Shown: positions 362 to 36,244, numbered from the stretch's first letter. The stretch is DNA of 59,146 bases from Thermoanaerobaculia bacterium (GCA_027067575.1 JAMOVQ010000026.1:1-59146), one strand, 5' to 3'. Numbers and translations are program-made. The notes: generated from the sequence alone by a model not told the origin.

Positions 362-390
362 TTGACCCTTGCGGGCTCGGGTGTTAGCGT
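362..390 (+). promoter_or_regulatory. Sigma-70-type promoter for the pseudokinase-TonB gene
   Basis: TTGACC (362-367), 17 nt, TAGCGT (385-390) with upstream TG. RBS GGAGGAGG before ATG 411. Confidence 0.6.
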
Positions 391-410
391 TGGATGGGAG
401 GAGGAGCGTC

Positions 411-17889: not shown

Positions 17890-18044
17890 CGGTCTCAGGA
17901 TGCCCGGACGTCCCGGGATCCATCCGGGGCCAGTCGTGCCCGGGTGTTCCTTGAACGGTTGTGCCGTGTTGGTACGGTGGGGCGCTGCCTGTTTCGTGAC
18001 GAACCGACGGGGCGGTCACTCCGCCGAAGGACCGGTGCTCCTTC

Positions 18045-18060
18045 GGGAACGGTTCTTGCT
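18045..18060 (+). promoter_or_regulatory. Possible sigma-54 promoter upstream of the giant surface protein gene
   Basis: GGGAACGGTTCTTGCT: GG-N10-GC with ACG and TTGCT. Deviates from consensus at two positions. Confidence 0.4.
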
Positions 18061-18141
18061 TCCCCGGAATTCTGGAATCACGTCCGACCGGTCCGTGCGG
18101 CACTCGAGAGGCTGCCGGATCGTCGGATGGAGGAGGATCGA

Positions 18142-21100: not shown

Positions 21101-24100
21101 TCGTGGGGACCTCCATCACCGACTCGGTCAACGCCGCCGACGAGGTGGTGATCGGCGAGATGGTGACGTACCAGCTCACCCTCACGGTGCCCGAGGGAAC
21201 GATGCCCTCGACCCACATCGTGGACACCCTGGATCCCGGCCTGGCGTTCGTGGACGTGGTTTCCGTGGTCTATTCCTCCTCGGACCTGACATCGACCAAC
21301 ACCATCGGGATCGGTCCGAATCCGTCCAACGTCACCGTCGGAGCGAACGGATCCAGCCTCGATTTCGATTTCGGCGACCTGGTCAATGCAAACACGGACA
21401 ACACGGTGGACGAGACGGTCACCGTCGTGTACCGCGCTGTGGTGCTCAACATCGCCGCGAATCAGGCGGGGACGACGCTGGGCAACTCGGCCTCGGTCTC
21501 GTGGACCGATGGCACGCTCGGACCGGTCTCCGCCGCCGATGTGGCGGTGATCGAGCCGGCGATAGCGATCGACAAGAACGCCTCCCCGACGGCGGTCGAT
21601 GCCGGCGACGTCATCACGTACACCGTCAACGTGACGAGCCCCAACGATCCGTCGGCGGCCTCGGCGATGGACGTCGTGGTGACCGACACGCTCCCGACCG
21701 GGATGACCTACGTGGCCGGATCGCTCGGAACCGGTACCTGCGCCACGACGCCCACGGCGCTGGACGACAGCAGTGCTCCGGCCCTGACGGTGACCTGGGC
21801 CTCATTCCCACCGGGTGGCTCGTGTGAGATCACCTACCAGGCCACGGTGGATCAGAGCGTGGAACCCGGACAGGGGATGCCCAACACGGTCACGGATACC
21901 TGGACGAGCCTGCCGGGCGATCCGGGCCAGATCTCGGCCCACAACGGCGACGCCACCGAACGGAACGGTTCGGGTGGTGTCAACGACTACACGGGGACGG
22001 ACTCGGCGACGGTGACGGCCCGGAATGTCGACCCTGCCAAGTCGGTGGGGACGACCTCCGAGAGCTTCACGTCGGGAACGGACGTCGCCGTGGGTGAGGT
22101 CGTCCGGTACCGTATGGTGATCGAGCTGCCCGAGAGCACGGTGCCCGATCTGCGCCTGCAGGATGTTCTGCCAGCAAGCCTGCAGTTCATCGACGACGGC
22201 ACGGCGCGGCTCGCGCTGGTCTCCAACGGGAGTCCGATCACGTCGACGGAACCTGCCGGCTCCACGCTGGGGCTGGCACTGGGCAACGGTCCGTTCGGCA
22301 GCGGTCCGTGGGTCCAGGGGAACGATCCCACGGCGGTGACGCCGACCTTCGTGCTGCCCGACGCCAACATCGGATCCGATGGCTCTCTGACGAACGATCC
22401 GGACAACTGGGCGCCCGGGACGGACGTCTTCTTCAAGCTTGGAGATCTCGTCAATCCGGATTCCGACACCGATTCGGAATGGATCGTGCTCGAGTTCAAC
22501 GCCGTGGTGGTCAACACCGCGGACGTCAGTAACGGCACGGTGGTGAACAACTCCTACCTGGTCCTCTCGGGTTCCGACGAGCTTGCGGACTCCGGGCCCG
22601 CCGGGATTCCGTCGTTGACCGTCCGCGAACCGGCGGTGATCGACCTCGTCAAGACCGTCACGCCGACTTCCGGCGACGCCGGGGACACGGTGTCCTACCA
22701 GATCACCTGGTCCAACTCCGGGACCGCCACGGCCTGGGACACCGACCTCGTGGACGTCATCTCCTCCGGACTGGCGCTCAACGCAAGCTCTGTCACCATC
22801 ACCCTCTCGGGCGGCGCGACCGGGGCCACCGATCTGACGGCGGGCAACACGGTCCACGTCCAGGTGACCGAGATCCCCGTCGGTGGCTCGGTGACGGTGA
22901 CCTACACGGCAACGATCGAGACGAGCGTGGCGCCGGAACAGGTGCTGTCCAACTCCGTGGACCTGACCTGGACCTCGCTGCCCGGCCAGAACGGAACGAC
23001 GGGCAACCCCACGGGGTCCGATACGCCGGGTGGTCCGGGTTCGGACACGGGTGAGCGCGATGGATCCGGCGGGGTCAACGACTATTCCGCCTCGGATTCG
23101 GCCGACGTGACCATCACGTCGCCGGAGATCACCAAGACCGTGGCGTCCACGTCGGAGCCTTCCACGGGGATGAATCAGGGCGGCGTTCAGCTGCTGACCA
23201 TCGGCGAGACGGCGACGTTCTCGATCACGATCACGTTGCCCGAGGGCACCACGCCCACGGTGGTCATCACCGACTCGCTCCCGGCCAACGCCACCGGGGT
23301 CATGGAGGTGGTCTCCACCTCGGTCGACTCCATCGGCGCGAACCTGACGCCGGCCAACAGTCCGGCGGTCGTCACCATCACCGACGCCAACCTGGGCGAC
23401 GGGATCAACGACACGGTGAGCTTCGACTTCGGACAGGTCCAGAACGCGCCGGACGGCGTGGTGGACGACAACGATCGGATCACCGTGTCGGTGACGGCTC
23501 GCTTGAAGGACGTGCCCAACAACTCGAACGGCAATGTGCTGACCAACACGGCACGGCTCCAGTACGGAACGGGGCTCCAGGCGACCGACACGGCCGACGT
23601 GGAGGTGGTGGAGCCCGAGCTGGACGTCAGCAAGACGGCCTCGCCCACCACCGGCGACGCCGGGGACACCATCACGTTCACCGTCACGGTGGACCATGCG
23701 GGCACCTCGACGGCCGACGCCTTCGACCTCGTCGTGACGGATCAGATTCCCACGGACATGACCTGGGCCGGAAACGTGCAGACGGTTTCCGGACCCGCTC
23801 CGACGGTGGATACCTCCGGGTTGCCCACGGTGACGTTCTCGTGGGATGATCTCGCGCTGGGCGCGGGACCGTACACCTTCACCTTCGATGTCACACTGGA
23901 CACCACGGTCCAGCCGCAGCAGGTGATCACCAACACGGATGGCCTCACCTACGACACGCTCCCGGCGGACAACGATCCCGAGGAGCGGGACCACTCCGAC
24001 TCCGACTCGGCCAGTGTCACGATCTCGGCTCCAGGTGTGACCAAGACGGTCACATCGACCTCGGTCACGGCCACAGGGAATGGATCGGATTCGGAACCCG

Positions 24101-27100
24101 ATCTGACCATCGGTGAGCAGGTCACGTACGAGATCACCATCACGGTGCCCGAGGGCACCCTGAACCAGACGCTGGTGGTGGACGATCTGCCCACCGCACC
24201 GGGGCTTCTGGAAGTCGTCTCCTCCCAAGTCACGGCGATCGACGGTGACATGACGTCGTCCACGGGGCTCGGCGTCGGCTCGGCGGGAACGGCCTCCGAT
24301 CCCAACGGCGACGGCCGAAACGAGCGGGTGACGTTCGACTTCGGCACGCTGGTCAACGGTGTGGGCGGCTCCAACACCATCACGATCCAGGTGGTGGCCG
24401 TGGTGCCCGACGTGCCCGTCAACCAGGGCGGGCTGGACGGGCTCGTCAACACCGCGTCGGCCTCCACCTCCGGGGGCAGCGCGGTCAGCGGCACGGCCGC
24501 CGTGGACATCGTCGAGCCCGAGCTCGAGGTCACCAAGACGCTCGTCACGCCGTCCTCGCCGTTCGGCGACGCGGGCGACACGTTGACCTACCGGATCACG
24601 GTGGAGCACACCGCCGCCTCCTCGGCCGACGCGTTCGACGTGACGGTGGACGACGTCCTGCCGGTGGGACAAACCTACGTGACCGGGTCGCTCACCGTCG
24701 TCGATGGGCCTGCGCCCACCGAGGACACCTCGGGCCTCCCCGGCTCGGTCGTCTTCACCTGGCCGACCATCGCGCTGGCCGACAGCCCGGTGGTGATCGA
24801 GTACCAGGTCACGCTGGACGCCGGGGTCCATCCGGCCGAGACTCTGACCAACACGGCTCTGCTCTCCTGGGACTCGCTGCCCTCCGGGGCACCGGGCGAC
24901 GGCGGGGCCAACGATCGGGACGGGTCCGACTCGGACAACGCCGAGATCACCATCGACGCGCCGGCGCTGGTCAAGGTGACGGGGGTGTCCTCGCTCTCCG
25001 ACACCGGTCAGTCCCAGCACGATCCCACCCTGACCGACCTGGCCATCGGCGAGCAGGTGACGTACGAGATCACCGTCACGGTGCCCGAGGGTATCACCCA
25101 GTCGGCCGTCGTCACGGACTCGGTCCAGGCCGACGCCAACGGCGTGCTCGAGGTCATCGGAGCCACCGTCGTCTCCATCGGCGGCAACCTGACGACGACC
25201 CAGGCAGGCACGCCCACGTTCGCCGACAACATGCTGGGCGACGGACTCGATGACACGGTTTCCTTCGACTTCGGGGACATCACCAACACCGCGGACGGCG
25301 TCACGAACGACGACGACCGGATCGTGCTCGAGGTGACGGCGCGGGTCGTGGATCTTGCCGCCAACGCCGACGCCGACGAGCTCGTGAACTCCGCCAGTCT
25401 GACCTACGCCACAGGCCCGGCGGTGGACGACACCGCTGATATCGACGTGGTGGAGCCGGTGATGGCCATCGACAAGACCATGGGGACGCCGGTGAACGGC
25501 GTGGTGCCGATCACCGTGACGCTCTCCAACACGGGAACGGCGCCCGCGTACGACGTCCGGGTCACCGACGCCTTCGCCGCGGCCACCTGGGATACGGCGT
25601 CCATCGCGCCGGTCTCGATCCCGTCAGGGTTCACCTTCTCGGTTTCCGGTGCGCCGGGCGATGCCACGGTGACCATCGCATCGGATCCGGGAGCCTCGCC
25701 TCCGTCGTCCTCCATCGAGCCGGGTGAGGCGGTGGCGTTCACGTTCCAGGCTGCGTTCGTGGCCGACGGGGGGACTCCGGCGACGAATCCGCTGACCAAC
25801 ACGGCCACCAACGACCAGGCCACCACGCTCCCAGGTGACAACACCTCCGAGCGTGAGGAGCCCGACGTCTCCGACCAGGCGCAGCTCGCGCTGCCGTCCA
25901 TCGAGCTCGACAAGAGCTGGTCCATCGCCCCTGGCGGCGACCTGGATGGCTCGGGGACGGCCTCGCCGGGCGACATCCTGCGCTACACCATCACCGTGAC
26001 CAACTCGGGCCAGGGCGCGGCGACGAACCTCGCCATCACCGACCCGATCAACGATCCGAACCTGACACTCGTCACCGGTTCCGTCACCGCCGGCTCGGGT
26101 GCCGTGATCACGACGGGCAACAACGCCGGCGACACGGCTGTCCGGGTCGATTACGCAAGCTTCGCCGGTGGTACGAGCGACACCATCGCCTACGACGTCC
26201 AGGTGGCAGACCCCGTGGCTTCGGGGGTCTCCACACTGACCAACTGGGCCGCCGGTGATTGTGACGAACTCGACTCCGAGCCGTCCGACGACCCGTCCAC
26301 GACGGACGACGACGATCCGACCGTGGTGCCGCTCGACGCCGCTCCGGACATCGCCGTGGCCAAGGACGACGGTGTGACCGAGGTGCGCCCCGGCGACACC
26401 ATCACGTACACCGTGACGGTCTCCAACGTGGGCAACCAGGACGCCACCGGCGTCGTGCTGACCGATCCGGTTCCCTCCGGCACGGCTTTCGTCTCCGCTT
26501 CCGACGGCGGGACGGAGTCGGGCGGGACCGTGACCTGGCCTGCGTTCGATCTTGCGGCGGGCGATTCGGCCCAGCGGACCCTCGTGGTCCAGGTGAACGA
26601 CCCCGCCCCGGCGGGCCAGGCCACCGTGGCCAACACGGCTCATGCCGCCGACGACGGGGCCAACGGCACCGACCCGGATTCGGGCAACAACGATGCAACG
26701 GACACGGACACCCTGATCCAGGCGGACCTTGGGATCACCAAGGCCGATAGCCCGGATCCGGTCCGCGCCGGCGAACAGGTGACGTACACACTGACAATCG
26801 TCAACAACGGTCCGTCGGCCGAACCGAACGCCGTGGCGACGGACACACTACCGGCACAGTTCACCTTCGCCTCGGCCACGGCCAGTCAGGGCTCGTGCAC
26901 CGAAGCCGGCGGTGTGGTGACCTGCGCACTGGGCGCCATGGCCTCCGGTGCGACGGCCACCGTGACCATCGTCTGCGACGTGCCGGCGAACGTGGCAGCC
27001 GGTTCGTACACCAACACGGCCTCCGTGTCGGGCGACGAGTCCGACCCGGTCTCCACCAACGACACGGCGTCCGAGGACACCTCCGTTGTGGAGGAGGCCG

Positions 27101-30100
27101 ACCTGGCCATCACCAAGACGGACTCTCCGGATCCCGTCACGGCGGGCGAGCCGCTGACCTGGACCCTGACCGTCACCAACAACGGCCCGTCCGACGCCAC
27201 GAACGTGGTGGTCACGGACACCCTGCCCGCGGGCGTGACGTTCGACTCGGCCGACGCCGGGTGCACCGAGGCCGGCGGGACCGTCACCTGCACCGCTACG
27301 AACCTGGCGGCCGGTGACTCCGCGAGCTTCGACGTGGTGGTCACGGTGGATCCCTTCACCACGGGCACCATCCAGAACGCAGCCTCCGTGACGGCCGACC
27401 AGACCGACACCGACACCACCAACGACACCGACGACGAGGACACCGCCGTGGAGACGCGGGCGGACCTCTCGGTGGTCAAGGACGCTCCGGCGACAGTGGC
27501 TCGCGGCGACGATCTGACCTACACCATCACGGTAGCCAACGCGGGACCGTCCGATGCGGAGAACGTCACGCTCTTCGATCCGACACCGGGCGGACTGACG
27601 TTCGTCTCCGCCACGGCGCCGTGCACGGGCGGGTTCCCGTGCGACCTCGGCACCCTGGCCGCGGGCGCGTCGGTGACCCTGACGGCAACCTACACCGTCC
27701 CGGCGGACTACTCAGGGGCCGATCCGATCCTCAACACGGCCTCGGTGGCCACGGACACCGTGGACACCGACTCGACGAACAACTCCGACGACGGGACCAC
27801 GGCAGTGGACCGGACGCCCGAGTGTGACGTCTCGGTGGACAAGACCGGACCGCCCTCGGCGGCGGTGGGTTCCACGGTGACGTACACGCTGGTGGCATCC
27901 AACGCCGGCCCCGACGCCGCGGCGGACGTGGTGCTCGACGACCCGGCGCCGGCGGGGTTGACCTTCGCCTCGGCCGACGGGCCGTGCGCTGGCGGGTTCC
28001 CGTGCACCCTCGGGACGCTCGATCCGGGGCAGACCGTGACGGTCCACGCGACCTACGACATCCCGGCGTCCTACACGGGCTCCGACATCACGAACACGGC
28101 CACGGTGACCACCACGACGGACCAGACCGACACCACCAACGACTCGGACGACGAGACCACACCCATCGGGGCCGACCCCGTGGACCTCGTGGTGGACAAG
28201 CAGGGGCCCACGGCGGCCAACCCCGGTGACGACATCACCTACACCATCACCGTGACCAATCGCGGCCCCGGCGACGCCACGGGCGTGACCGCAACGGACA
28301 CCTTCCCCGGCGACGTCACCTGGGTCTCCGACAGCTGCGGCAACGACTTCGCCGACGGCGTCTGGAACATCGGGAACCTTGCCGCCGGTGACTCGGTGAC
28401 CTGTGAGATCACGGCCCACGTGGATCCCAATGCGGCGGGGCCGCAGACCAACAGCGTGACGGTCTCGGCCAACGAGGACGACAGCGACACGAGCAACAAC
28501 ACCGACGACACCATCACGGGGCTCGGTGCCGAGGCCGCCGACGTGGCCGTCGTCAAGACCGGCCCGGCCCGGACCTACCCGGGGAGCGACCTGGTCTACA
28601 CCCTGACCGTGACCAACAACGGTCCGGGGCTTGCTGCCAACGTGGTGCTCGACGATCCCACCCCGACGGGACTGACCTTCGTCTCGGCGTCGGCGCCGTG
28701 CGCTGGCGGGTTCCCGTGCACCCTGGGCAACCTGACCTCGGGTTCCTCGGTCTCGATGAGCGTCACGTTCCAGGTTCCGACGAACTACTCGGGTCCCGAC
28801 CCCATCGTCAACACGGCCTCGGTGACCACGGACTCCCAGGATGCCGACGCTGGAAACGACACCGACGACGCCTCGACGGACTACGTGCCAGAGGCCGACG
28901 CTTCCATCGACAAGGACGACGGTCAGACCACCGCCGTCCCGGGCACGACGATCACGTACACCATCACCGTGGGGAACGCCGGTCCTGGAGAGATCGTCGG
29001 TGGTACCGTCACGGACACCTTCCCGGCGATCCTGACCGGGATCTCCTGGACCTGCACGGCGTCGGCCGGCAGCTCCTGCACGGCCTCCGGCACGGGCGAC
29101 ATCGCCGACACGGTGACGATCCTGCCGAACGGCACGCTGACCTACACGGTCACCGCGACCATCGTGCCCGACGCCACCGGAAACCTCGTCAACCAGGCGA
29201 CGGTCACGCTTCCCAACGGCATGACCGATCCGGACCCGGCCGACAATACCGACGACGACACGGACACACTGACGCCTCAGACCGATCTGACCATCGTCAA
29301 GACCGACTCGCCCGACCCGGTGCTCGAGGGTTCGAACCTGACCTGGACGCTCGACGTCACCAACAACGGCCCGTCGGACGCCACCGGTGTGACGGTGACC
29401 GACCCGCTGCCGGCCGGCGTGGCGTTCCAGTCGGCCACGGCCAGCCAGGGCACCTGCTCCGAGACCGGTGGCGTGGTCACCTGCGACCTCGGCGACATGG
29501 CCGCCGGGACCACGGCCCAGGTCCAGATCGTCGCCATGGTGGACTGGAACGAGCCGGGTCCGATCCAGAACTCGGCCTCGGTCTCCGGTGACCAGGACGA
29601 TCCGGACGGCACCAACGACACGGACGACGAGCCGACGGACGTGCTGTACAGCCAGCTCGACGTGCTCAAGACCGTGTCGCCGCCGCCGGACGGCGAGGCG
29701 TACCGCCCCGGGGACGTGATCACCTGGACCATCGTCACCACCAACTCGGGCAACAGCCCGGCGGCGAACGCCATCCTGGGCGATCCGTTGCCGGTCGGGG
29801 CCGCCTACGTCCCCGGGTCGCTGACCCTCGACGGGGTGGCGCAGACCGATGCCGTGGACGGCGACGCCGGTTCGTACGACGGCGCCACGCGGACCGTGAC
29901 GGTGGACCTGGCACCGGTTCCTGCCAACGGCGGAACCCGGACCATCACCTTCCAGACCGAGCTCGTCGGGTACACGGGCAACCCGCCGACGACGATCTGG
30001 AACCAGGCCACGGTGGACACCCCCGGCGGCACGGTTCCCTCGGACGACCCGGACACCTCGGAGAACGACGATCCGACGGACGTCACCATCGAGTCGGTTC

Positions 30101-30192
30101 CGGCGATCCCCGCCCTGGGGACCGGGGGTGCGGCCGGGTTCGTGCTTCTGCTGATCCTGGCCGGCCTCGCGGTGCTCCGCCGGGTCCACTGA
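18142..30192 (+). CDS. Giant (~4016 aa) surface protein with ~26 isopeptide-pilin/DUF11-type Ig-like repeats and an IPTL-CTERM-like sorting tail
   Basis: Signal peptide (MVGKNGSLIRTVLAGLGVLMAAAVCVA). Repeated xDLxIxK...GD/E...YTITVxNxG...V.D.LP...NTA units. C-terminus IPALGTGG + TM + RR. RBS GGAGGAGG. Confidence 0.92.
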   Translation: MVGKNGSLIRTVLAGLGVLMAAAVCVAQPVPTVTMDVPSEVMLGEQVSFTVTFDNTSATDPGYGPIIDLVFPVNGADGAAGTDTPDGISFVSASYLGQPVDVTIRTFPDDGGGVGCRRHPFFMKPNHRRKWVCGTAGDTLVVLKLPFGSVVPDQPPITVDVTANLSNLADLQVPLPIHARGGFQYGADPLDNPCCDSVIVNPDDSDSSSWPSSSVTPILMRISKIGLSPDTLAPEDETTVGPGFERWFQITVDVADGQTITNLDVTDILPDNVQFVAVTATQVNGSDVSTTAVATPSTTTPGGTLTRRYATVTGTTGANDVALVFRYYVPRLDANGNETIPEGSCSKVLGFNDAATLGDWDPIDPRDPSGTDNAGIDPPGHEAGFSGKTIAVQEDAAIVNDLGAAGATPGDTVEYIVEFQVSDVMAFDSLRLEQVISDGQRFDTSFTPTIQVNEHGTSTGPAAFDAANFTVTDHYTGSPSAVAPIDGTQTVEFRVSDEMVHQGLDAAVLGNCVPDGGTGGGPPDCSVYSGGKAKVRVVFRTIIQDQFTDDYPSGDPSVDQGDELTGDVDVYGNLLDPEDLTATGSTCTDDSDAGVTIVRGNVTKEVYAINGSTSFQTPVLVAPGDEVTYRIRYTLATSDFESLVVRDFLPLPVFMATDVTTFTSVVDGSIPAAGEAKYGPDDTFHAYSGIDPTLSTNAASNAVVFDYGDFDSASNQATEIDLLFTVKATDEPYADGMVLINQVRVHEGSTNAEESDDDAIAPVTLMMPRLVVRKGACQTDNPDEQYDPPLSGGGCPGQVTSDDLANDPALSDSDVSGIDVGDHMTFSMTIENQGGAGAFDITIHDVMPPGFCLPGCTTADPMCAAGASGLNFSVVRGDGFVPTWVPQGTYNDDRDLFSNGLMLDDSAGQPLFQPHDPAAGTNTLTISYELEICDISLVPGSLLANQGGVSSFASREGGPNFVDPNNPVDYTDQATMTLAMPQFAKALVGTSITDSVNAADEVVIGEMVTYQLTLTVPEGTMPSTHIVDTLDPGLAFVDVVSVVYSSSDLTSTNTIGIGPNPSNVTVGANGSSLDFDFGDLVNANTDNTVDETVTVVYRAVVLNIAANQAGTTLGNSASVSWTDGTLGPVSAADVAVIEPAIAIDKNASPTAVDAGDVITYTVNVTSPNDPSAASAMDVVVTDTLPTGMTYVAGSLGTGTCATTPTALDDSSAPALTVTWASFPPGGSCEITYQATVDQSVEPGQGMPNTVTDTWTSLPGDPGQISAHNGDATERNGSGGVNDYTGTDSATVTARNVDPAKSVGTTSESFTSGTDVAVGEVVRYRMVIELPESTVPDLRLQDVLPASLQFIDDGTARLALVSNGSPITSTEPAGSTLGLALGNGPFGSGPWVQGNDPTAVTPTFVLPDANIGSDGSLTNDPDNWAPGTDVFFKLGDLVNPDSDTDSEWIVLEFNAVVVNTADVSNGTVVNNSYLVLSGSDELADSGPAGIPSLTVREPAVIDLVKTVTPTSGDAGDTVSYQITWSNSGTATAWDTDLVDVISSGLALNASSVTITLSGGATGATDLTAGNTVHVQVTEIPVGGSVTVTYTATIETSVAPEQVLSNSVDLTWTSLPGQNGTTGNPTGSDTPGGPGSDTGERDGSGGVNDYSASDSADVTITSPEITKTVASTSEPSTGMNQGGVQLLTIGETATFSITITLPEGTTPTVVITDSLPANATGVMEVVSTSVDSIGANLTPANSPAVVTITDANLGDGINDTVSFDFGQVQNAPDGVVDDNDRITVSVTARLKDVPNNSNGNVLTNTARLQYGTGLQATDTADVEVVEPELDVSKTASPTTGDAGDTITFTVTVDHAGTSTADAFDLVVTDQIPTDMTWAGNVQTVSGPAPTVDTSGLPTVTFSWDDLALGAGPYTFTFDVTLDTTVQPQQVITNTDGLTYDTLPADNDPEERDHSDSDSASVTISAPGVTKTVTSTSVTATGNGSDSEPDLTIGEQVTYEITITVPEGTLNQTLVVDDLPTAPGLLEVVSSQVTAIDGDMTSSTGLGVGSAGTASDPNGDGRNERVTFDFGTLVNGVGGSNTITIQVVAVVPDVPVNQGGLDGLVNTASASTSGGSAVSGTAAVDIVEPELEVTKTLVTPSSPFGDAGDTLTYRITVEHTAASSADAFDVTVDDVLPVGQTYVTGSLTVVDGPAPTEDTSGLPGSVVFTWPTIALADSPVVIEYQVTLDAGVHPAETLTNTALLSWDSLPSGAPGDGGANDRDGSDSDNAEITIDAPALVKVTGVSSLSDTGQSQHDPTLTDLAIGEQVTYEITVTVPEGITQSAVVTDSVQADANGVLEVIGATVVSIGGNLTTTQAGTPTFADNMLGDGLDDTVSFDFGDITNTADGVTNDDDRIVLEVTARVVDLAANADADELVNSASLTYATGPAVDDTADIDVVEPVMAIDKTMGTPVNGVVPITVTLSNTGTAPAYDVRVTDAFAAATWDTASIAPVSIPSGFTFSVSGAPGDATVTIASDPGASPPSSSIEPGEAVAFTFQAAFVADGGTPATNPLTNTATNDQATTLPGDNTSEREEPDVSDQAQLALPSIELDKSWSIAPGGDLDGSGTASPGDILRYTITVTNSGQGAATNLAITDPINDPNLTLVTGSVTAGSGAVITTGNNAGDTAVRVDYASFAGGTSDTIAYDVQVADPVASGVSTLTNWAAGDCDELDSEPSDDPSTTDDDDPTVVPLDAAPDIAVAKDDGVTEVRPGDTITYTVTVSNVGNQDATGVVLTDPVPSGTAFVSASDGGTESGGTVTWPAFDLAAGDSAQRTLVVQVNDPAPAGQATVANTAHAADDGANGTDPDSGNNDATDTDTLIQADLGITKADSPDPVRAGEQVTYTLTIVNNGPSAEPNAVATDTLPAQFTFASATASQGSCTEAGGVVTCALGAMASGATATVTIVCDVPANVAAGSYTNTASVSGDESDPVSTNDTASEDTSVVEEADLAITKTDSPDPVTAGEPLTWTLTVTNNGPSDATNVVVTDTLPAGVTFDSADAGCTEAGGTVTCTATNLAAGDSASFDVVVTVDPFTTGTIQNAASVTADQTDTDTTNDTDDEDTAVETRADLSVVKDAPATVARGDDLTYTITVANAGPSDAENVTLFDPTPGGLTFVSATAPCTGGFPCDLGTLAAGASVTLTATYTVPADYSGADPILNTASVATDTVDTDSTNNSDDGTTAVDRTPECDVSVDKTGPPSAAVGSTVTYTLVASNAGPDAAADVVLDDPAPAGLTFASADGPCAGGFPCTLGTLDPGQTVTVHATYDIPASYTGSDITNTATVTTTTDQTDTTNDSDDETTPIGADPVDLVVDKQGPTAANPGDDITYTITVTNRGPGDATGVTATDTFPGDVTWVSDSCGNDFADGVWNIGNLAAGDSVTCEITAHVDPNAAGPQTNSVTVSANEDDSDTSNNTDDTITGLGAEAADVAVVKTGPARTYPGSDLVYTLTVTNNGPGLAANVVLDDPTPTGLTFVSASAPCAGGFPCTLGNLTSGSSVSMSVTFQVPTNYSGPDPIVNTASVTTDSQDADAGNDTDDASTDYVPEADASIDKDDGQTTAVPGTTITYTITVGNAGPGEIVGGTVTDTFPAILTGISWTCTASAGSSCTASGTGDIADTVTILPNGTLTYTVTATIVPDATGNLVNQATVTLPNGMTDPDPADNTDDDTDTLTPQTDLTIVKTDSPDPVLEGSNLTWTLDVTNNGPSDATGVTVTDPLPAGVAFQSATASQGTCSETGGVVTCDLGDMAAGTTAQVQIVAMVDWNEPGPIQNSASVSGDQDDPDGTNDTDDEPTDVLYSQLDVLKTVSPPPDGEAYRPGDVITWTIVTTNSGNSPAANAILGDPLPVGAAYVPGSLTLDGVAQTDAVDGDAGSYDGATRTVTVDLAPVPANGGTRTITFQTELVGYTGNPPTTIWNQATVDTPGGTVPSDDPDTSENDDPTDVTIESVPAIPALGTGGAAGFVLLLILAGLAVLRRVH

Positions 30193-30319: not shown

Positions 30320-30667
30320 TCAGCGGAAGCCGATCATCCCGTGACGGGCGAGCTGGTGGAGGAACAGCGCCACGCGGGCCTCGGCGGCCTCCATCTCTCC
30401 GCCCTCGGCCTCCCGGAGCGCCGAGGCGATCTCTTCGGCGGAGCGCTCCCCGTCCAGGAGGCGCCAGACCGCCGAGCCCCGCTCGTCGAGCAGGATCGTC
30501 GGTGAGGAGAGGAAGGCGGCGATCCGTTCCAGGAACCCCCGCACCCCCGGGGTCTCCGGCTGCGGCCTCCTGAGGAGCACGCGCCCCTCCCGATCCTCCC
30601 ACGACGCCAGCGGGACCGGCGTGAGGGCCAGCATTTCCCCGACGGTCATGGTCCGCTTCCGTGCCAT
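30320..30667 (-). CDS. PqqD-family (RRE-like) protein
   Basis: LDERGSAVWRLLDGERSAEEIA...RVALFLHQL..GMI matches the PqqD winged-helix pattern. Confidence 0.8.
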   Translation of the reverse strand: MARKRTMTVGEMLALTPVPLASWEDREGRVLLRRPQPETPGVRGFLERIAAFLSSPTILLDERGSAVWRLLDGERSAEEIASALREAEGGEMEAAEARVALFLHQLARHGMIGFR

Positions 30668-30671
30668 GGCG

Positions 30672-31655
30672 CTACACCACGTACGCCATGGCGAACCCCA
30701 CCTGCGCCGCCATCATCATCAGGTACATGTGGGTCCAGGACGGGTGGTTCTCCACGGTGGCCAGGGCGCCGGGGTCGCGGAGCATCAGCCGGATGGTGTA
30801 CACGCCCCACGCCGCCAGTCCCAGCCCCAGGGCGACGAGCACCGGACCGTTCCCCGTCAGGATCGCGTGGGCCGGGTCGTGGGGGTCGGGGAGCATCGCC
30901 CCGAGCGGCATCAGCAACCACGGGAGCACGAACGACGGCGCCATCAGGTGCACGGCCCGCCTGGTGCCGTAGATCAGCGGCAGGGTCCGGCAGCCGCCGC
31001 GGGCATCTCCCTCCATGTCCGAGAAGTCCTTGGTCGAGCTCGCCCCGAGGAGGAACATCCCGAAGATCGCCCCGATCCACCACGGCTCGGCGGACCAGAC
31101 CGGCGCCACCATGGACCACCCGGCGACCTTGAGCAGCGTGCCCCGGGGGATGGCGATGGTCAGGTTGGCCAGCCACCCGAGCCGCTTCGTGCGGCCGAAC
31201 GCCGGCAGGGAGTAGACGAGGGTGAACAGCAGCCCCGCCAGGTAGATGAAGAAGCAGACGTGCTCGGACACGGGCGCTGTCAGCTTTGCCGCCAGGGTGT
31301 CGTAGGGGTGCGGCACCACGAGCCAGGTCGGGAGCAACGCCAGCGCGTACATGACGACGGTGACCGTCCACGCCTCCCGGAGCGACACCCGTCCCGAGGG
31401 CAGGGCCCTCCCCGGCTTGTTGACCCGGTCGATCTCCAGGTCGGCGATCTGGTTGAGGATGTTCGATGCCGCGTTGAGCAGTGAAGCGCACGCCGAGCCC
31501 AGCACGACGGTGGCCACCACGGTCCAGGTCAGCCGGTGGGCCGGGTCCGGGTTGTGGACCGAGCCGAAGGCGCACACCGCGCCCGAGACGATTCCGAGCA
31601 GCGGCGGCAGCAGCGTGAACGGCCGGGAGAGGTCCCGGAGGTCCTTCAACGTCAT
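30672..31655 (-). CDS. UbiA-superfamily prenyltransferase (HPT/ChlG/DGGGP-synthase-like motifs)
   Basis: RP.TL N-terminus, NQIADLEIDRVNKPGRALPSG, YSLP, KDFSDMEGD...RTLP..YG, multiple TMs. Confidence 0.88.
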   Translation of the reverse strand: MTLKDLRDLSRPFTLLPPLLGIVSGAVCAFGSVHNPDPAHRLTWTVVATVVLGSACASLLNAASNILNQIADLEIDRVNKPGRALPSGRVSLREAWTVTVVMYALALLPTWLVVPHPYDTLAAKLTAPVSEHVCFFIYLAGLLFTLVYSLPAFGRTKRLGWLANLTIAIPRGTLLKVAGWSMVAPVWSAEPWWIGAIFGMFLLGASSTKDFSDMEGDARGGCRTLPLIYGTRRAVHLMAPSFVLPWLLMPLGAMLPDPHDPAHAILTGNGPVLVALGLGLAAWGVYTIRLMLRDPGALATVENHPSWTHMYLMMMAAQVGFAMAYVV

Positions 31656-31699
31656 GGCCGGGAGTCTACCGCACCCCGGACGCGCCCTCCGGCATTCCC

Positions 31700-32045
31700 C
31701 GGCGTGGCTGACCAGGCTGTGAGGGATTGCTTCGTCACCCGCCTTCGGCGAGTCCGTGGGGCGCGCCAAGCTGTCAGGGATTGCTTCGCCGTTCTCCTTA
31801 CGGAGTCCGGCTCGCAATGACAGGGCCAGGACATGGCCGAGGCGCTCAGCCCGCGCGGAGCGCGGGGACCGGCCGCCGGTTCGCCCTCCGCGAGAGAAAG
31901 GGAGTGTCCCCTTCTCCGGTTTGCGCTTCGGAGAACGAGGTCCATCACGATCGGGACTGTCCCCTCAAAGGAGCCCCCGGCCATCCAGCGATCGAGCGCC
32001 CCACGAGGAACGGAAGAGAAAGGGAGTGTCCCCTTCTCCGGTGGG
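31700..32045 (-). repeat. Mosaic intergenic repeat (modules A, C, B plus 28-nt direct repeats)
   Basis: The reverse complement of 31923-32013 matches 57539-57629 (82/91 nt). That of 31761-31822 matches 57119-57180 (58/62). 31850-31894 resembles 57202-57247. Identical 28-mers at 31893-31920 and 32015-32042. Confidence 0.88.
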
Positions 32046-32053
32046 AAGGAGGG

Positions 32054-33394
32054 TCACGGCGGGAGCAGGAGGGTGATGGCGTGGAGGATCAGGGCGCCGG
32101 TGACGGTGTTGGCCAGGTTGGTGCCGGTGTTGGTGACGGGGCCGAGCCGGGGGAGGAACCCCTCGGCGAGCATGGCGAGGAAGCCGGCCGCCGTCACGGG
32201 GAGGAGCGCCCCCGCCGGGAGGAACCCCGAGGCCACGGCCGCCCCGGCGATCGCCGCCGCGCCGGCGAGCCCGGCCAGGGTGCCGGGGATCGAGACGGCG
32301 CCCTCGGTCCCGGGCGGCACGGGCCGCAGGGAGGGCAGTGCCCAGGTCCGGCGGCCGTACGCTTTGCCGATCTCCGAGGCTGCGGTGTCCGCGAGCGCCG
32401 CGGCGAGACCCGCCGCCACGACCGCCGCCGCCGCGGCGCTTCCCGTCAGTCCGTAGAGGACGCTTCCCACGAGGCAGAGCGCGCCGTTGGCCGCCACGTG
32501 GGCGAGCCCCCTCCGGCGCTCGTCCTCGAGCCCGGCGCGGCGCTTCTCGGCGCGCCGGATCCTGGTGACGGCCGTGCCGCCCGCCAGGAAGATCCAGAGG
32601 AGCAGGTAGGCGCGCCACGTCCCGAACCCCAGGGTCACCGTGCCGAGGAGCCAGGCGGCCGCGATCCCGGGGCCCTCCAGCAGCCGCACCGCCCGCGCCG
32701 CCACGGCGATGGCCAGGTTGACGGCCGCCGCCAGCGCCACGGCCCGCGCGAGGGCCGGCGGGTCCGTCAGGCCGGCCGTCCCCGCGGTGGCCGCCGCCAG
32801 GACGAGGGTCCCGGCCAGCGGCGGCAGCACGTTGTCGTCGAGCCCGTGGGGGAGCGACTCCAGCACCGCCGCCAGGACGGTACCGAGCACGACGGCCACC
32901 GCCGCGGCCGTACCGTACGCCCCGTACGGGCACCGTCCCCAGACGAAGGCGAACAGCGCCACGCCGAGCGCCCCGCCACCCAGGACGTACCCGGTGAACC
33001 CCTCCCACGACTTGGCGCCGTTCCAGGGGAGCGGGTGGCGGCCCCACAGCATCCCCACGGTGCCCGCCACGGCGTCGCCCCCGGCGAGCAGACCCCAGCC
33101 GAAGGCGGCCAGCGCCAGCCCGGACGCGCCCGGCCGGTGGAAGAGCACGATCAGGGCCAGGACCACCAGCGGGTACAGGAGCACGCCGCGGTCGGAGGCG
33201 CCGTGCCGTTTGGTAGCCAGGCGGTGGCCGAGCAGACGCGGCAGGAGCAGGAGGTTGAACAGGAACGCCACCAGGGCACACAGGGCGGCGGCGCGCCAGT
33301 CGAGCCAGCGCAGCGCCAGCGCGAAGGCGGCCATGCCCAGGTGGACCGCCTTGCGGGGCAGCTCGCCGGGAGGCAGCGTGCGGCGGGCGGTCAC
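32054..33394 (-). CDS. Fusion of CTP-dependent phytol/dolichol-kinase-like domain and DUF92 (TIGR00297/VTE6-like) domain
   Basis: N-half: ELPRKAVH, GDAVAGTVG..WG......KSWEG, LDDN. C-half: RGLAHVAANG, ADTAASEIGKAYG, VPPGTEGAVS..GTLAG. GTGA overlap with the upstream SDR gene. Confidence 0.82.
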   Translation of the reverse strand: MTARRTLPPGELPRKAVHLGMAAFALALRWLDWRAAALCALVAFLFNLLLLPRLLGHRLATKRHGASDRGVLLYPLVVLALIVLFHRPGASGLALAAFGWGLLAGGDAVAGTVGMLWGRHPLPWNGAKSWEGFTGYVLGGGALGVALFAFVWGRCPYGAYGTAAAVAVVLGTVLAAVLESLPHGLDDNVLPPLAGTLVLAAATAGTAGLTDPPALARAVALAAAVNLAIAVAARAVRLLEGPGIAAAWLLGTVTLGFGTWRAYLLLWIFLAGGTAVTRIRRAEKRRAGLEDERRRGLAHVAANGALCLVGSVLYGLTGSAAAAAVVAAGLAAALADTAASEIGKAYGRRTWALPSLRPVPPGTEGAVSIPGTLAGLAGAAAIAGAAVASGFLPAGALLPVTAAGFLAMLAEGFLPRLGPVTNTGTNLANTVTGALILHAITLLLPP

Positions 33395-34377
33395 GGCGCC
33401 TCCGAGAGCGTCAGGGTGCGGCGGACCTCCCGCCGCCACCACTCCAGGAGGTCGAGCAGCGTCTGTTCGATGGGAATGGCGGGCTCCCACCCCGTCGCCT
33501 CGCGGAACGCCTCGGCACTTCCCCACAGGGCCGGGATGTCGGCGGTCCGGAGACGGCCGGGATCGACGCGGACCTCGACGGTCTCCTCGCTGGAGGAGAG
33601 CAGGAGGTCGAGGACCCGCCGGATCGTGACGGGACGCCCCGAGCAGACGTTGTAGACGGCACCGGGTTCCCCCCGGGTGGCCGCCAGCCAGTATGCGCGG
33701 ACCACGTCGCGCACGTCACAGAGATCGCGGACCACGTCGAGGTTTCCGACCTCGATCCGCGGCGGACGCATCCCGGCCTCGATCTCGGCGATCTGCCGGG
33801 CGAAGGAGGAGGCGACGAACCGGGAGGGGCGGCGCGGCCCGGTGTGGTTGAACAGCCTGAGCCGGACGATCTCCATGGAGTACGCCGTGGCGTACTGGGC
33901 GGCCAGGAGGTCCTGGGCCGCCTTGCTGACGCCGTACGGGGAGACCGGCGCCAGCGGCGTATCCTCCCGGGCTGGGAGGTGGTCCTCGGGGACGGCCCCG
34001 TACACCTCGCCGGAGCAGGCCACCACGATCCTGGGGTTCATGTCCAGCGTCCGGATCCCCTCGAGGAGGTACACCTGGCCGATGGCGTTGACCTGGAGCA
34101 CCTCGGCGGGCGTGACCCACGAGGAGGAGACGGTGGAGGCCGCGGCGAGGTGGAAGACGATGTCGGGCCGCGCGGCCCGGAGCGCCCTGAGGATCGCCGG
34201 AGCGTCGGTCAGGTCGCCCTCGACGAGCCGGACGAGCGGTGCGATGGGGCCGAGCACCTCGGCCTCAGAGTCCCACCGGACGAGCCCCCAGATCGTGGCC
34301 TCGGGAACGCGCTCCACGAGCAGCTCGGCGAGGTACCGCCCGGCGAACCCGGTGATCCCGGTGATCAGGACGCGCAT
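33391..34377 (-). CDS. GDP-mannose 4,6-dehydratase / GDP-4-dehydro-6-deoxy-D-mannose reductase family SDR
   Basis: LITGITGFAG, HLAA, SPYGVSK, FNHTGPR, GNLDVVRDLCDVRDVVRAY. Confidence 0.85.
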   Translation of the reverse strand: MRVLITGITGFAGRYLAELLVERVPEATIWGLVRWDSEAEVLGPIAPLVRLVEGDLTDAPAILRALRAARPDIVFHLAAASTVSSSWVTPAEVLQVNAIGQVYLLEGIRTLDMNPRIVVACSGEVYGAVPEDHLPAREDTPLAPVSPYGVSKAAQDLLAAQYATAYSMEIVRLRLFNHTGPRRPSRFVASSFARQIAEIEAGMRPPRIEVGNLDVVRDLCDVRDVVRAYWLAATRGEPGAVYNVCSGRPVTIRRVLDLLLSSSEETVEVRVDPGRLRTADIPALWGSAEAFREATGWEPAIPIEQTLLDLLEWWRREVRRTLTLSEAP

Positions 34378-35213
34378 CGTGCCTCCAGGTCGCGGTCGAG
34401 GGCGTTCTCCCACGGCGGGAGCTCCCGCCCGAGGAGCCGCCGGAGCCGGTCCGTCGCCAGGACGGAGTTCGCGGGCCGCCGGGCCGGCCGGGGGAACGCC
34501 TCGGTGGGAACGGGGCGGACCGCGACCCCCGGCGCGGTCCGCGCGACGATGGCCCGGGCGAACCCGTGCCAGGTCGTGGACCCGGCGTTGACGACGTGGA
34601 TCGTGCCCGTGGCCCCGCGGGCGAGGAGGTCGAGGATCGCCCCGGCGAGATCGGGGGCGTAGGTGGGGCAGCCGCGCTGATCGGCCACCACGTCCAGCGT
34701 CCGGGCTCCGGACTCGACCTGCCGGAGGATCGCCTCGACGAAGTTCCGGCCCCCGGGGCCGAACAGCCAGGCCGTCCGGACCACCAGGTGCCGGCGGGCG
34801 GTCCGGGCCAGCGACTCGCCGAGCGCCTTGCTCCGGCCGTAGGCGTTGACCGGGTCCACGGGGTCGTCCTCGGCCCACGGCCGGGAGCCGGTGCCCGGGA
34901 AGACGTAGTCGGTGGAGACCTGGACGAGCACCGCTCCGGCGAGATCGGCGGCGCGGGCCAGGTTGCCCACGGCGAGACCGTTGATCCGGTTGGCCGCGTC
35001 GGGCTCGGACTCGCAGCGGTCAACGTCGGTCATCGCCGCGCAGTTGACGATCACCGACGGGCGCACGCGGAGGACCGTCCGCTCCACGGCCACGGGATCG
35101 GCGATGTCCAGCGTGTCGAGATCGTGCCCCTCGGCCGCGAGCCTCCGCCTGGCGGCCTCGGCGAGGAGGGCCGCGCCCAGCTGGCCGCGGGACCCCGTGA
35201 CGAGGACCGTCAT
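34365..35213 (-). CDS. rfbD: dTDP-4-dehydrorhamnose reductase
   Basis: VTGSRGQLG, NCAAMTDVDRCE, STDYVF, YGRSKALGE, DQRGCPT, ARRPANS. Confidence 0.92.
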   Translation of the reverse strand: MTVLVTGSRGQLGAALLAEAARRRLAAEGHDLDTLDIADPVAVERTVLRVRPSVIVNCAAMTDVDRCESEPDAANRINGLAVGNLARAADLAGAVLVQVSTDYVFPGTGSRPWAEDDPVDPVNAYGRSKALGESLARTARRHLVVRTAWLFGPGGRNFVEAILRQVESGARTLDVVADQRGCPTYAPDLAGAILDLLARGATGTIHVVNAGSTTWHGFARAIVARTAPGVAVRPVPTEAFPRPARRPANSVLATDRLRRLLGRELPPWENALDRDLEARCAS

Positions 35214-36244
35214 CCCGCCGGCCCGTCCTCCAGGCGCCGCCCGTACTGGCGGCGGTAGTAGGCGGCGAACTCCTCGTCCCCCTCGCGGATCGGACGCCAC
35301 CAGTCCGGGTGGTCCACGTACCACCGGACCGTCGTCTCCAGGGCGTCCTCGAAGGAGGTCTCCGGCCGCCACCCCAGGGCGGCGAGCTTGGAGGCGTCGA
35401 GGGAGTACCGGCGGTCGTGGCCCGGCCGGTCCTCGACGAACCGGATCAGGTCGCGGGGGCGGCCGAGGAGGTCGAGGATCCGCGTGGTGATCTCCAGGTT
35501 CGTCCGCTCGTTGCCGCCGGCGATGTTGTACACCTCGCCAGGATCGCCGTGGGAGAGCAGGAAGTCGATGGCCCGGCAGTGGTCCAGGACCCAGAGCCAG
35601 TCCCTGACGTTGCCGCCGTCGCCGTACAGCGGCAGGGGCAGGCCGGTCAGGGCGTTGGTGACGAACAGGGGGATCAGCTTCTCCGGGTACTGGTACGGGC
35701 CGAAGTTGTTCGAGGCGCGGGTGATGATCACCGGCACGCCGAACGACGCCCAGAACGAGAAGGCGATCCGGTCGCCGCCGGCCTTGGAGGCCGAGTACGG
35801 GTTCGTCGGCATCAGGGGCGAGCTCTCGGTGAACGATCCGCGGTCGATGGAGCCGTACACCTCGTCGGTGGAGACCTGGACGAACCGGGCCACGCCGCGC
35901 CGGCGGGCCTCCTCCAGCAGCACCCAGACGCCGTAGCAGTCGGTCTGGATGAAGTGGCCGGCGCCGAGGAGCGAGCGGTCCACGTGGGTCTCCGCGGCGA
36001 AGTTGACCACCGCGTCGCAGCCGTCCATGGCGTCGCGGACGGCCTCGGCGTCGCAGATGTCCCCGTGGACGAACCGGTAGCGCGGGTCGTCCTCGATGTC
36101 GGCCAGGTTCTCGCGCCGGCCGGCGTAGGTCAGTGCGTCGAGGTTGACCACCTCGAGGCCGGGGCGGGCCGCGAGCACGTGCCGGACGAAGTTCGACCCG
36201 ATGAACCCGCAGCCGCCGGTGACGAGAAGCCGTTCGATCCGCAT
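35210..36244 (-). CDS. rfbB: dTDP-glucose 4,6-dehydratase
   Basis: VTGGCGFIGSNF, DALTYAG, AAETHVDRS, STDEVYG, PYSASKA, PEKLIP, DRPGHDRRY. Confidence 0.95.
   Translation of the reverse strand: MRIERLLVTGGCGFIGSNFVRHVLAARPGLEVVNLDALTYAGRRENLADIEDDPRYRFVHGDICDAEAVRDAMDGCDAVVNFAAETHVDRSLLGAGHFIQTDCYGVWVLLEEARRRGVARFVQVSTDEVYGSIDRGSFTESSPLMPTNPYSASKAGGDRIAFSFWASFGVPVIITRASNNFGPYQYPEKLIPLFVTNALTGLPLPLYGDGGNVRDWLWVLDHCRAIDFLLSHGDPGEVYNIAGGNERTNLEITTRILDLLGRPRDLIRFVEDRPGHDRRYSLDASKLAALGWRPETSFEDALETTVRWYVDHPDWWRPIREGDEEFAAYYRRQYGRRLEDGPAG

Follow-up and report, generated by a model that had tools for sequence, protein, structure and literature searches.

The locus

This report concerns three genes in a 59,146-nucleotide stretch of DNA from a Thermoanaerobaculia bacterium (GCA_027067575.1, JAMOVQ010000026.1:1-59146), here called the window, which is the whole of contig C26 and has a GC content of 70%. 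The genes encode a fusion of a polyprenol-kinase-like domain with a DUF92 (VTE6-like) domain, an orphan prenyltransferase of the UbiA superfamily, and a PqqD-family protein (Table 1). VTE5 is a phytol kinase and VTE6 a phytyl-phosphate kinase (COG1836/DUF92), and a prediction made from the window's sequence alone had proposed the three genes as a module for isoprenoid-alcohol salvage and prenylation. The fusion and UbiA form a conserved pair, of which PqqD is not a part, and we consider it probable on balance that the fused kinases turn a free prenol into the diphosphate used by the prenyltransferase to make a lipid product.

The three co-oriented genes are present on the minus strand as predicted, and the quoted motifs were all recovered from the translations: RKAVH, GGDAVAGTVG, KSWEG, DDN, ADTAASEIGKAYG and VPPGTEGAVS in the fusion, and NQIADLEIDRVNKP and KDFSDMEGD in UbiA. 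The fusion starts with GTG, which forms a GTGA overlap with the stop codon of the short-chain dehydrogenase/reductase (SDR) gene upstream. The ATG start of UbiA is backed by relatives, in which the open frame begins two codons before the same MTLKDL, and the PqqD ATG lies 4 nt past the UbiA stop codon. The source genome comprises 3.08 Mb in 191 contigs, with an estimated completeness of 100%, and the record titles of its relatives place it among Thermoanaerobaculia-like Acidobacteriota.

Table 1. Genes, domains and spacer of the minus-strand gene string (30320-36240) in the window
Feature	Position	Strand	Remarks
RmlB-like dehydratase	35210 to about 36240	-	first gene of the string
RmlD	34365 to about 35225	-	in the same string
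GDP-mannose-dehydratase-like SDR (upstream epimerase gene)	33391 to about 34380	-	directly 5' of the fusion
Fusion gene, 446 amino acids (aa): polyprenol-kinase-like N-terminal domain and C-terminal DUF92 (VTE6-like) domain	32054..33394	-	one frame
N-terminal domain, probably SEC59/VTE5-like, residues ~1-215	32750..33394	-	sub-threshold PF01148, invariant residues, Atlas models
C-terminal DUF92/COG1836 domain	32057..32722	-	PF01940
Spacer between fusion and UbiA, 398 nt	31656..32053	-	two 28-nt hairpin repeats, one 34-nt repeat pair
Orphan UbiA-superfamily prenyltransferase, 327 aa	30672..31655	-	PF01040
PqqD-family gene	30320..30667	-	PF05402

The spacer holds exact copies of a 28-nt sequence at 31893-31920 and 32015-32042, either of which could fold into a hairpin of 9-11 bp, and a pair of 34-nt repeats at 31712 and 31766. 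With at most one mismatch, the 20-nt core of the 28-mer occurs in 11 copies on seven contigs of the genome, and the 28-mer appears from its sequence to be a small dispersed element of the repetitive extragenic palindromic (REP) kind. The fold of the spacer has a z value of -2.9; comparison of the spacer with Rfam returned no match, and a scan for promoters and terminators gave nothing meaningful.

The conserved pair and its partners

One genome per species was scanned for relatives of the window's UbiA, and the best 80 of 173 stretches containing them were taken as UbiA loci. Their UbiA proteins are 57-87% identical to that of the window, and nearly all carry labels of Acidobacteriota metagenome-assembled genomes (MAGs). 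When the window proteins were compared with these loci by tblastn, the fusion was found to adjoin UbiA in 59 of the 80, upstream and co-oriented in 50 and downstream on the other strand (convergent) in nine; 12 loci were too short for adjacency to be judged. The gap between the two genes is mostly 11-300 nt, and of the 53 loci at which both halves of the fusion could be detected, 52 have them in one uninterrupted frame.

Co-occurrence was counted in 301 evenly sampled Acidobacteriota genomes, each at least 90% complete, with a threshold of E<=1e-20 for UbiA. UbiA was found in 97 of them, DUF92 in 129, both in 96 and UbiA alone in one, counts that overstate the support for a link because the genomes are related rather than independent; dropping the two flagged as unpublished (G083 and G204, both within the 96) changes nothing. 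The dependence is that of UbiA on the fusion and not the other way round, which fits a kinase pair feeding a pool of activated prenyl groups with more than one consumer. The two proteins are also joined in nature: P0179, a singleton cluster that may be a gene-calling artefact, is a single protein of 571 aa in which a DUF92 domain precedes one of this UbiA subfamily (identity 43% over its full length), and P0250 is a fragment with the same arrangement. Adjacency, co-occurrence and gene fusion thus uphold the fusion-UbiA part of the proposed module. A complex prediction for the DUF92 half with UbiA scored 0.00, which speaks neither for nor against binding.

The recurrent third partner of the pair is a phosphoesterase, not PqqD, as indicated by further fused forms, by adjacency and by co-occurrence. 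Three clusters of 913-953 aa (P0142, P0217 and P0271), with source labels of Deltaproteobacteria and Planctomycetota MAGs, consist of UbiA followed by an alkaline-phosphatase-family domain (PF01663), and a PF01663 gene directly follows UbiA at six of the 80 loci. One family (f56) includes single-contig genomes in which some 5 kb of sequence hold a phosphatase-family gene together with the fusion and UbiA. In the genome under study the phosphatase domain has a homologue that stands as a separate protein, encoded on contig C55, with a signal peptide and 37% identity over 693 aa. Its orthologues at E<=1e-115, a threshold picked after the list had been seen, occur in 84 of the 97 UbiA-positive and eight of the 204 UbiA-negative genomes, which again are related rather than independent and include three unpublished ones (G083, G204 and G108); weaker paralogues are widespread (184 of 301 genomes at 1e-40). 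Another fused form, P0125 (a cluster of four sequences), has a fatty-acid-desaturase domain followed by UbiA. The stand-alone homologue of this desaturase in the genome (C108:897-1814) is 51% identical, and such an enzyme may modify the prenylated product. The neighbourhoods of the phosphatase and desaturase homologues on C55 and C108 were uninformative. The SDRs that adjoin the fusion at L015, L016, L019 and L056 had no match above 90 bits in the genome under study, and a lipid-type reductase was accordingly rejected as a member of the module here.

PqqD is a lineage-specific passenger and not a member of the module, although in this genome it is probably co-transcribed with UbiA. This conclusion rests on its distribution: no PqqD gene was found in any of the 80 UbiA loci of relatives, and neither UbiA nor the fusion in any of 19 PqqD loci from other genomes (searched over ±1.5 kb). 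Conservation of the neighbourhood therefore extends to the pair and stops short of the trio that the original prediction had envisaged, an outcome which that prediction had itself named as refuting. Of the genomes in the same family, 31 of 36 have a PqqD homologue, as do two of 24 in the sister family. Nine of the 19 PqqD loci were annotated, one of which gave no open reading frame (ORF) under the filter; among the eight scanned, PqqD lies beside a gene for an OPT oligopeptide transporter in six (L090, L095, L097, L100, L102 and L104) and beside one for a periplasmic binding protein in three. In G023, the closest of the genomes compared, PqqD is likewise on a contig of its own.

It is unusual for a peptide-binding domain of the PqqD type to have an OPT transporter as its partner. 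The OPT orthologue of the genome under study (C183:17805-19208) is 81% identical to the L102 copy and lies 318 bp from the contig end; no PqqD match follows it on C183. At the closest loci (UbiA 83-85% identical), UbiA is followed by a gene for a protein of 605-630 aa (L003:6552-8369, L005:7160-8977, L009:6982-8877), of which the genome under study has a copy at C54:6470-8233 (76% identical). No Pfam family matches the L009 copy at E<=1e-6, and the gene that follows it at this locus encodes a radical S-adenosylmethionine (SAM) enzyme; L001 has a frame resembling the latter, with a CxxxCxxC motif.

Elsewhere in the window, an ORF of 4082 aa (17944-30192, plus strand) converges on the PqqD gene. 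It contains 14 DUF11 stretches together with DUF7507, DUF7619, bMG10, CARDB and Cna-B-like domains and, judged by these, resembles a repeat protein of the surface or adhesin type, of giant size; a smaller DUF11 protein is encoded on contig C50. At 366-2336 (plus strand), a Ser/Thr protein kinase domain and, C-terminal to it, a TonB_C domain share one frame of 656 aa.

Families of the fusion and of UbiA

Profile searches of the kind that the original prediction had called for placed three domains above their Pfam gathering (GA) cut-offs: DUF92 of the fusion (1e-38, 133.6 bits; GA 27.5), UbiA (PF01040; 6.9e-31, 107.9 bits; GA 34.2) and PqqD (PF05402; 1.5e-10, 41.7 bits; GA 23.4). The CTP_transf_1 and TIGR00297 profiles fell below theirs, as detailed below. 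PF01940, the DUF92 family, covers residues 225-414 of the fusion (8.1e-39) and matches 34 of 34 orthologues; this DUF92 copy is the only one in the genome. Membership of the C-terminal half in DUF92 is solid, and we regard this half as a diverged member of DUF92/COG1836, predicted to have prenyl-phosphate kinase activity. Membership of the N-terminal half in the VTE5/Sec59 family is probable, not proven.

In an alignment of the 34 orthologues, which are 27-68% identical to the window protein, the invariant residues are R14, H18, N47, G106, D107, K128, E179, D187 and N188 in the N-terminal half, and K284, R295, D336, T337, E341, G362, G365, S368 and N426 in the DUF92 half, where D336, T337 and E341 make up the conserved acidic core. 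The conserved cores of the two halves can be aligned with each other by hhalign (E 1.1e-4, probability 56%), which agrees with the placement of COG1836 in the cytidylyltransferase superfamily (Makarova et al. 2015). An AlphaFold (AF2) model of the whole fusion has a mean predicted local distance difference test score (pLDDT) of 92.5. In an exhaustive VIA structural search of 48,161 chains with this model, the first two matches were the CTP-dependent lipid enzymes CdsA (4q2e; Z 7.2, root-mean-square deviation [rmsd] 3.2, 159 residues aligned) and CarS (5guf; Z 6.4, rmsd 4.2, 113 aligned), both falling on the DUF92 half. The N-terminal half modelled alone (pLDDT 88.4) led in the ESM Atlas, whose predicted models serve as leads only, to a cluster named 'SEC59/DGK1/VTE5 family' (TM 0.73/0.75) and to a plant 'phytol kinase' cluster (TM 0.75/0.65), with overlaps of 184-194 residues. 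Of 14 control genomes, four have DUF92: those of one cyanobacterium and three archaea, all users of C20 isoprenoids.

Several of these comparisons weigh against the assignment of two kinases. The fusion misses the equivalog cut-off of TIGR00297 (130.5 bits, cut-off 205.85), and its N-terminal half matches CTP_transf_1 (PF01148) at 8.3e-4 and 19.7 bits, under the GA of 24; PF01148 matches three of the 34 orthologues at E<=0.01 (best 4.9e-6), and none of the NCBIfam models matches this half. The VIA Z values are all below 8, a range that the tool itself flags as middling, and the N-terminal half alone reached CdsA at rank 11 (Z 5.6) and CarS at rank 16 (Z 5.4), the noise level for helical bundles. 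A Foldseek comparison of the whole model with the PDB gave nothing at E<=0.001, and phmmer and fusion-profile searches of PDB sequences gave chance-level matches only.

The window UbiA carries both Asp-rich motifs of its superfamily, N68 and D76 being invariant and D72, D210, D213 and D217 nearly so across 74 sequences, and yet from its scores it belongs to no curated family. Twenty-seven UbiA-type NCBIfam models match it, none near its cut-off: the chlorophyll synthase model ChlG (NF005742) gives 93.6 bits (cut-off 313), PRK12884, a model of unnamed function, 91 (269), BchG (TIGR01476) 85.3 (212.3), digeranylgeranylglyceryl phosphate (DGGGP) synthase (NF009521) 69.2 (296) and homogentisate phytyltransferase (HPT; NF009525) 57.4 (226). 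The MenA, MqnP, UbiA and CyoE models give at most 28 bits. Among proteins of solved structure, the best sequence match is the DGGGP synthase of M. jannaschii (6m31; 5.9e-14, 55 bits), followed by chlorophyll synthase (9sau; 1.9e-11, 47 bits); both enzymes use prenyl diphosphates. The motif regions are near-identical to those of 6m31, including the acceptor-side stretch KDF.DMEGD...LP..YG, and the label 'HPT-like' given earlier has accordingly proved non-specific.

The same holds for the subfamily as a whole. A library-wide HMMER search returned 177 cluster representatives at E<=1e-30, and none of 70 subfamily members matched any curated family at E<=1e-40, apart from three matches to PRK12884 (best 8e-44). 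The automatic names of these relatives at source conflict (4-hydroxybenzoate polyprenyltransferase, DGGGP synthase, chlorophyll synthase), and an ESM Atlas search with UbiA returned its own family only. A quick maximum-likelihood tree of the 70 members and four paralogues from the genome is poorly resolved, with stars on nine of 71 inner branches and long-branch outgroups in the wrong place; the fused UbiA forms fall among ordinary members in it. UbiA is by far the better conserved of the two proteins, with a mean column identity of 73% (24 orthologues) as against 46% for the fusion.

The genome has four further UbiA paralogues. One is MqnP-like (TIGR01475, 290.8 bits, cut-off 180.8), and this paralogue, not the window UbiA, is the menaquinone enzyme; the earlier expectation that the window UbiA falls outside the housekeeping MenA/MqnP/CyoE group is borne out by its low scores and by these separate paralogues. 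Another (C94:29161-30012, L083) passes the cut-off for decaprenyl-phosphate phosphoribosyltransferase (260 bits, cut-off 234), a type best known from mycobacterial arabinan synthesis. The third is weakly MenA-like. The fourth is an orphan UbiA that follows a geranylgeranyl-reductase-like gene (C50:89-2082, L116); the reductase-family protein scores 155.8 bits against TIGR02032 (cut-off 158.8), and the two genes may make up another isoprenoid module of this genome. Searches of the genome for PcrB (geranylgeranylglyceryl phosphate [GGGP] synthase), CarS, 4-hydroxyphenylpyruvate dioxygenase (HPPD) and the Mg-chelatase subunit BchH found none of them, which makes the classical acceptors unlikely.

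Function, alternatives and significance

In the reading that we favour, the fusion would be a membrane protein joining two homologous CTP-transferase-fold domains, of which the N-terminal, SEC59/VTE5-like half would convert a free isoprenoid alcohol (prenol) to the prenyl phosphate and the VTE6-like DUF92 half would convert this to the prenyl diphosphate; both activities are predicted by homology to VTE5 and VTE6. UbiA would take the diphosphate as donor and place the prenyl chain on a probably phosphorylated lipid head group, and the secreted alkaline-phosphatase-family enzyme encoded on C55 would process the lipid in the periplasm. We infer this flow of substrate to UbiA, and the part assigned to the phosphatase-family enzyme, from the associations described above. 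The acceptor would be something other than chlorophyllide, homogentisate, a menaquinone precursor or canonical GGGP. Our leading guess, a tentative one that may well prove wrong, is that the head group is a phosphorylated polyol or of the glycerol type and that the product is an ether-linked lipid of the envelope. One paper (PMC9179154) mentions the dephosphorylation of a bacterial prenylglyceryl phosphate, a precedent for the last step.

A number of observations count against this reading. The source of free prenol in a non-phototroph lacks explanation. Nine of the 68 informative UbiA loci have at least 1.6 kb on both sides and no fusion, several families have the fusion and UbiA on different contigs, and in G023 (UbiA 80% identical) the UbiA, DUF92 and PqqD genes lie on three separate contigs; in the window itself the repeat-filled spacer parts the fusion from UbiA. 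DUF92 is present without UbiA in 33 of the 204 UbiA-negative genomes, so that the fusion is not exclusive to UbiA. When 12 loci were fetched around DUF92 genes that do not adjoin a UbiA, the fusion still stood behind LptD and one or two SDR genes in five (G065, G175, G070, G071 and G087), four of them from genomes lacking UbiA and one from a genome with UbiA on another contig. Its link to an envelope or sugar-nucleotide operon is thus independent of UbiA, and the main role of the fusion could lie in envelope glycan or lipid-carrier metabolism.

That tie keeps alive the explanation in which the fusion, acting like a dolichol kinase, regenerates polyprenyl phosphate for envelope glycan assembly, while UbiA, resembling decaprenyl-phosphate phosphoribosyltransferase, uses polyprenyl phosphate as the acceptor for an activated sugar phosphate and the phosphatase removes the extra phosphate. 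In the window the fusion shares an operon with RmlB-like, RmlD and GDP-mannose-dehydratase-like genes; SDR genes occur in 48 of the 80 UbiA loci and LptD in 29, and the corresponding mycobacterial pathway includes a dephosphorylation step, which the phosphatase-type partner recalls. We nevertheless hold this explanation to be unlikely. The C94 paralogue already passes the phosphoribosyltransferase cut-off, models of that family are not in the best 25 of the 27 that match the window UbiA, the closest relatives of the latter use prenyl diphosphates, and a prenyl-phosphate kinase domain would be superfluous. Moreover, in P0179 UbiA is joined to the DUF92 half, which is presumed to form the diphosphate, and not to the first kinase; this favours supply of a donor over polyprenyl phosphate as acceptor. 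Less probable still is the absence of any functional link, with the pair kept as neighbours by a slowly rearranging core block: housekeeping genes (LptD, SDRs, ClpB, HSP20, M48 protease, GrpE) do flank the pair in many loci, and the unlinked and non-adjacent cases noted above are in line with such a history, yet DUF92 is found, linked or not, in 96 of the 97 genomes with UbiA, the single-chain DUF92-UbiA form exists, and relatives of this UbiA subfamily also carry Deltaproteobacteria and Planctomycetota MAG labels.

The remaining explanations concern the chemistry of UbiA. It might be a UbiA-type terpene synthase, cyclizing or rearranging the prenyl diphosphate with no second substrate, for which two Asp-rich motifs suffice; such enzymes in bacteria and fungi are mentioned in a 2026 preprint, and the failure to identify PcrB, CarS, HPPD or BchH is in keeping with an enzyme that needs no acceptor. 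The strong local identity to DGGGP synthase over both motif regions, acceptor-side stretch included, and a recurrent phosphoesterase partner suggestive of a phosphorylated product make this very unlikely in our view. That UbiA is simply a DGGGP synthase, a (bacterio)chlorophyll synthase or an HPT we regard as highly improbable, although these families and structures score best and DUF92 in the control genomes accompanies exactly these pathways; its scores lie far under the cut-offs, none of the 70 subfamily members scanned matches these families at E<=1e-40, and the partner genes were not found in a genome estimated to be 100% complete. The archaeal-lipid, chlorophyll and tocopherol readings were rejected on these grounds. 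Least credible of all is the trio as originally proposed, with PqqD as a peptide-binding partner and UbiA prenylating a peptide. PqqD domains are peptide-recognition elements in pathways to ribosomally synthesized and post-translationally modified peptides (RiPPs), and here PqqD begins directly after UbiA; however, the genes are separate in every relative's locus compared, the relatives' PqqD copies stand elsewhere beside OPT genes, and the window genes scanned show no radical SAM or other RiPP-type maturase, short precursor-peptide genes not having been searched for. PqqD was accordingly rejected as a member of the module.

Of known systems, the phytol salvage of plants and cyanobacteria, treated with VTE5, VTE6 and COG1836 in a review (PMC9782597), shares with the favoured reading the two families, their presumed order and a UbiA-family consumer alongside; a table in another paper (PMC3223725) also lists COG1836 under phytol-phosphate metabolism. 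It differs in that here both kinases are in one polypeptide, the host has no chlorophyll or homogentisate pathway as judged from searches for BchH and HPPD, UbiA is in no phytyltransferase family, and a secreted phosphoesterase is added. Archaeal fusions of a Sec59-like domain with arCOG02245 (COG1836), such as Mbar_A3310 of Methanosarcina, are described in Makarova et al. (2015; PMC5898192), where both domains are placed in the cytidylyltransferase superfamily, a kinase step in isoprenoid metabolism is predicted and uppS is given as the sole conserved neighbour. The architecture as described there and the conclusion drawn from it are the same, whereas the neighbours here are an orphan UbiA and LptD or sugar-nucleotide genes of a Gram-negative bacterium. 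The DGGGP synthase 6m31 and chlorophyll synthase 9sau are alike in their motif regions and unlike in overall score, and the genes that would accompany them (GGGP synthase, CarS, Mg-chelatase) were not found in the genome. Finally, the ebo cluster, in which the UbiA-like EboC occurs with the PF01663 phosphoesterase EboF (Yurchenko et al. 2016; PMC5133447), ties a UbiA-superfamily enzyme to the same hydrolase family in a pairing of undefined chemistry. The EboC model, however, gives the window UbiA 34 bits (cut-off 250), other ebo-type families are absent from the genes scanned in the window and in 13 relatives' loci, and kinases are no part of ebo.

VTE5/VTE6 salvage and the archaeal fusion are thus already known. 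For the UbiA subfamily, its phosphoesterase partner, the product and the bacterial module, no description was found in the literature searched, whose coverage did not extend to subscription journals. In the Acidobacteriota sample, 97 of 301 genomes, roughly one in three, retain UbiA at 45-80% identity to the window protein, a degree of conservation that points to a specific and important lipid product not so far detected by chemical means.

Soils and sediments are rich in Acidobacteria, and whether these are a source of the unusual membrane lipids that serve as climate proxies is debated. An as yet unassigned isoprenoid-lipid pathway in Acidobacteriota offers lipidomics a concrete target. If its predicted activity holds, the fused kinase is also a compact candidate for converting supplied prenols into prenyl diphosphates in engineered hosts. 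That the fused kinases, the orphan UbiA and the secreted phosphatase-family enzyme together build a new class of isoprenoid envelope lipid in Acidobacteriota, ether- or phosphodiester-linked, is a speculative extension to which we give a low probability. If true, it would mean a bacterial route to isoprenoid membrane lipids that dispenses with GGGP synthase and CarS and has prenol recycling built in, and the lipid may extend past the phylum, given the relatives labelled Deltaproteobacteria and Planctomycetota that carry the phosphatase fusion.

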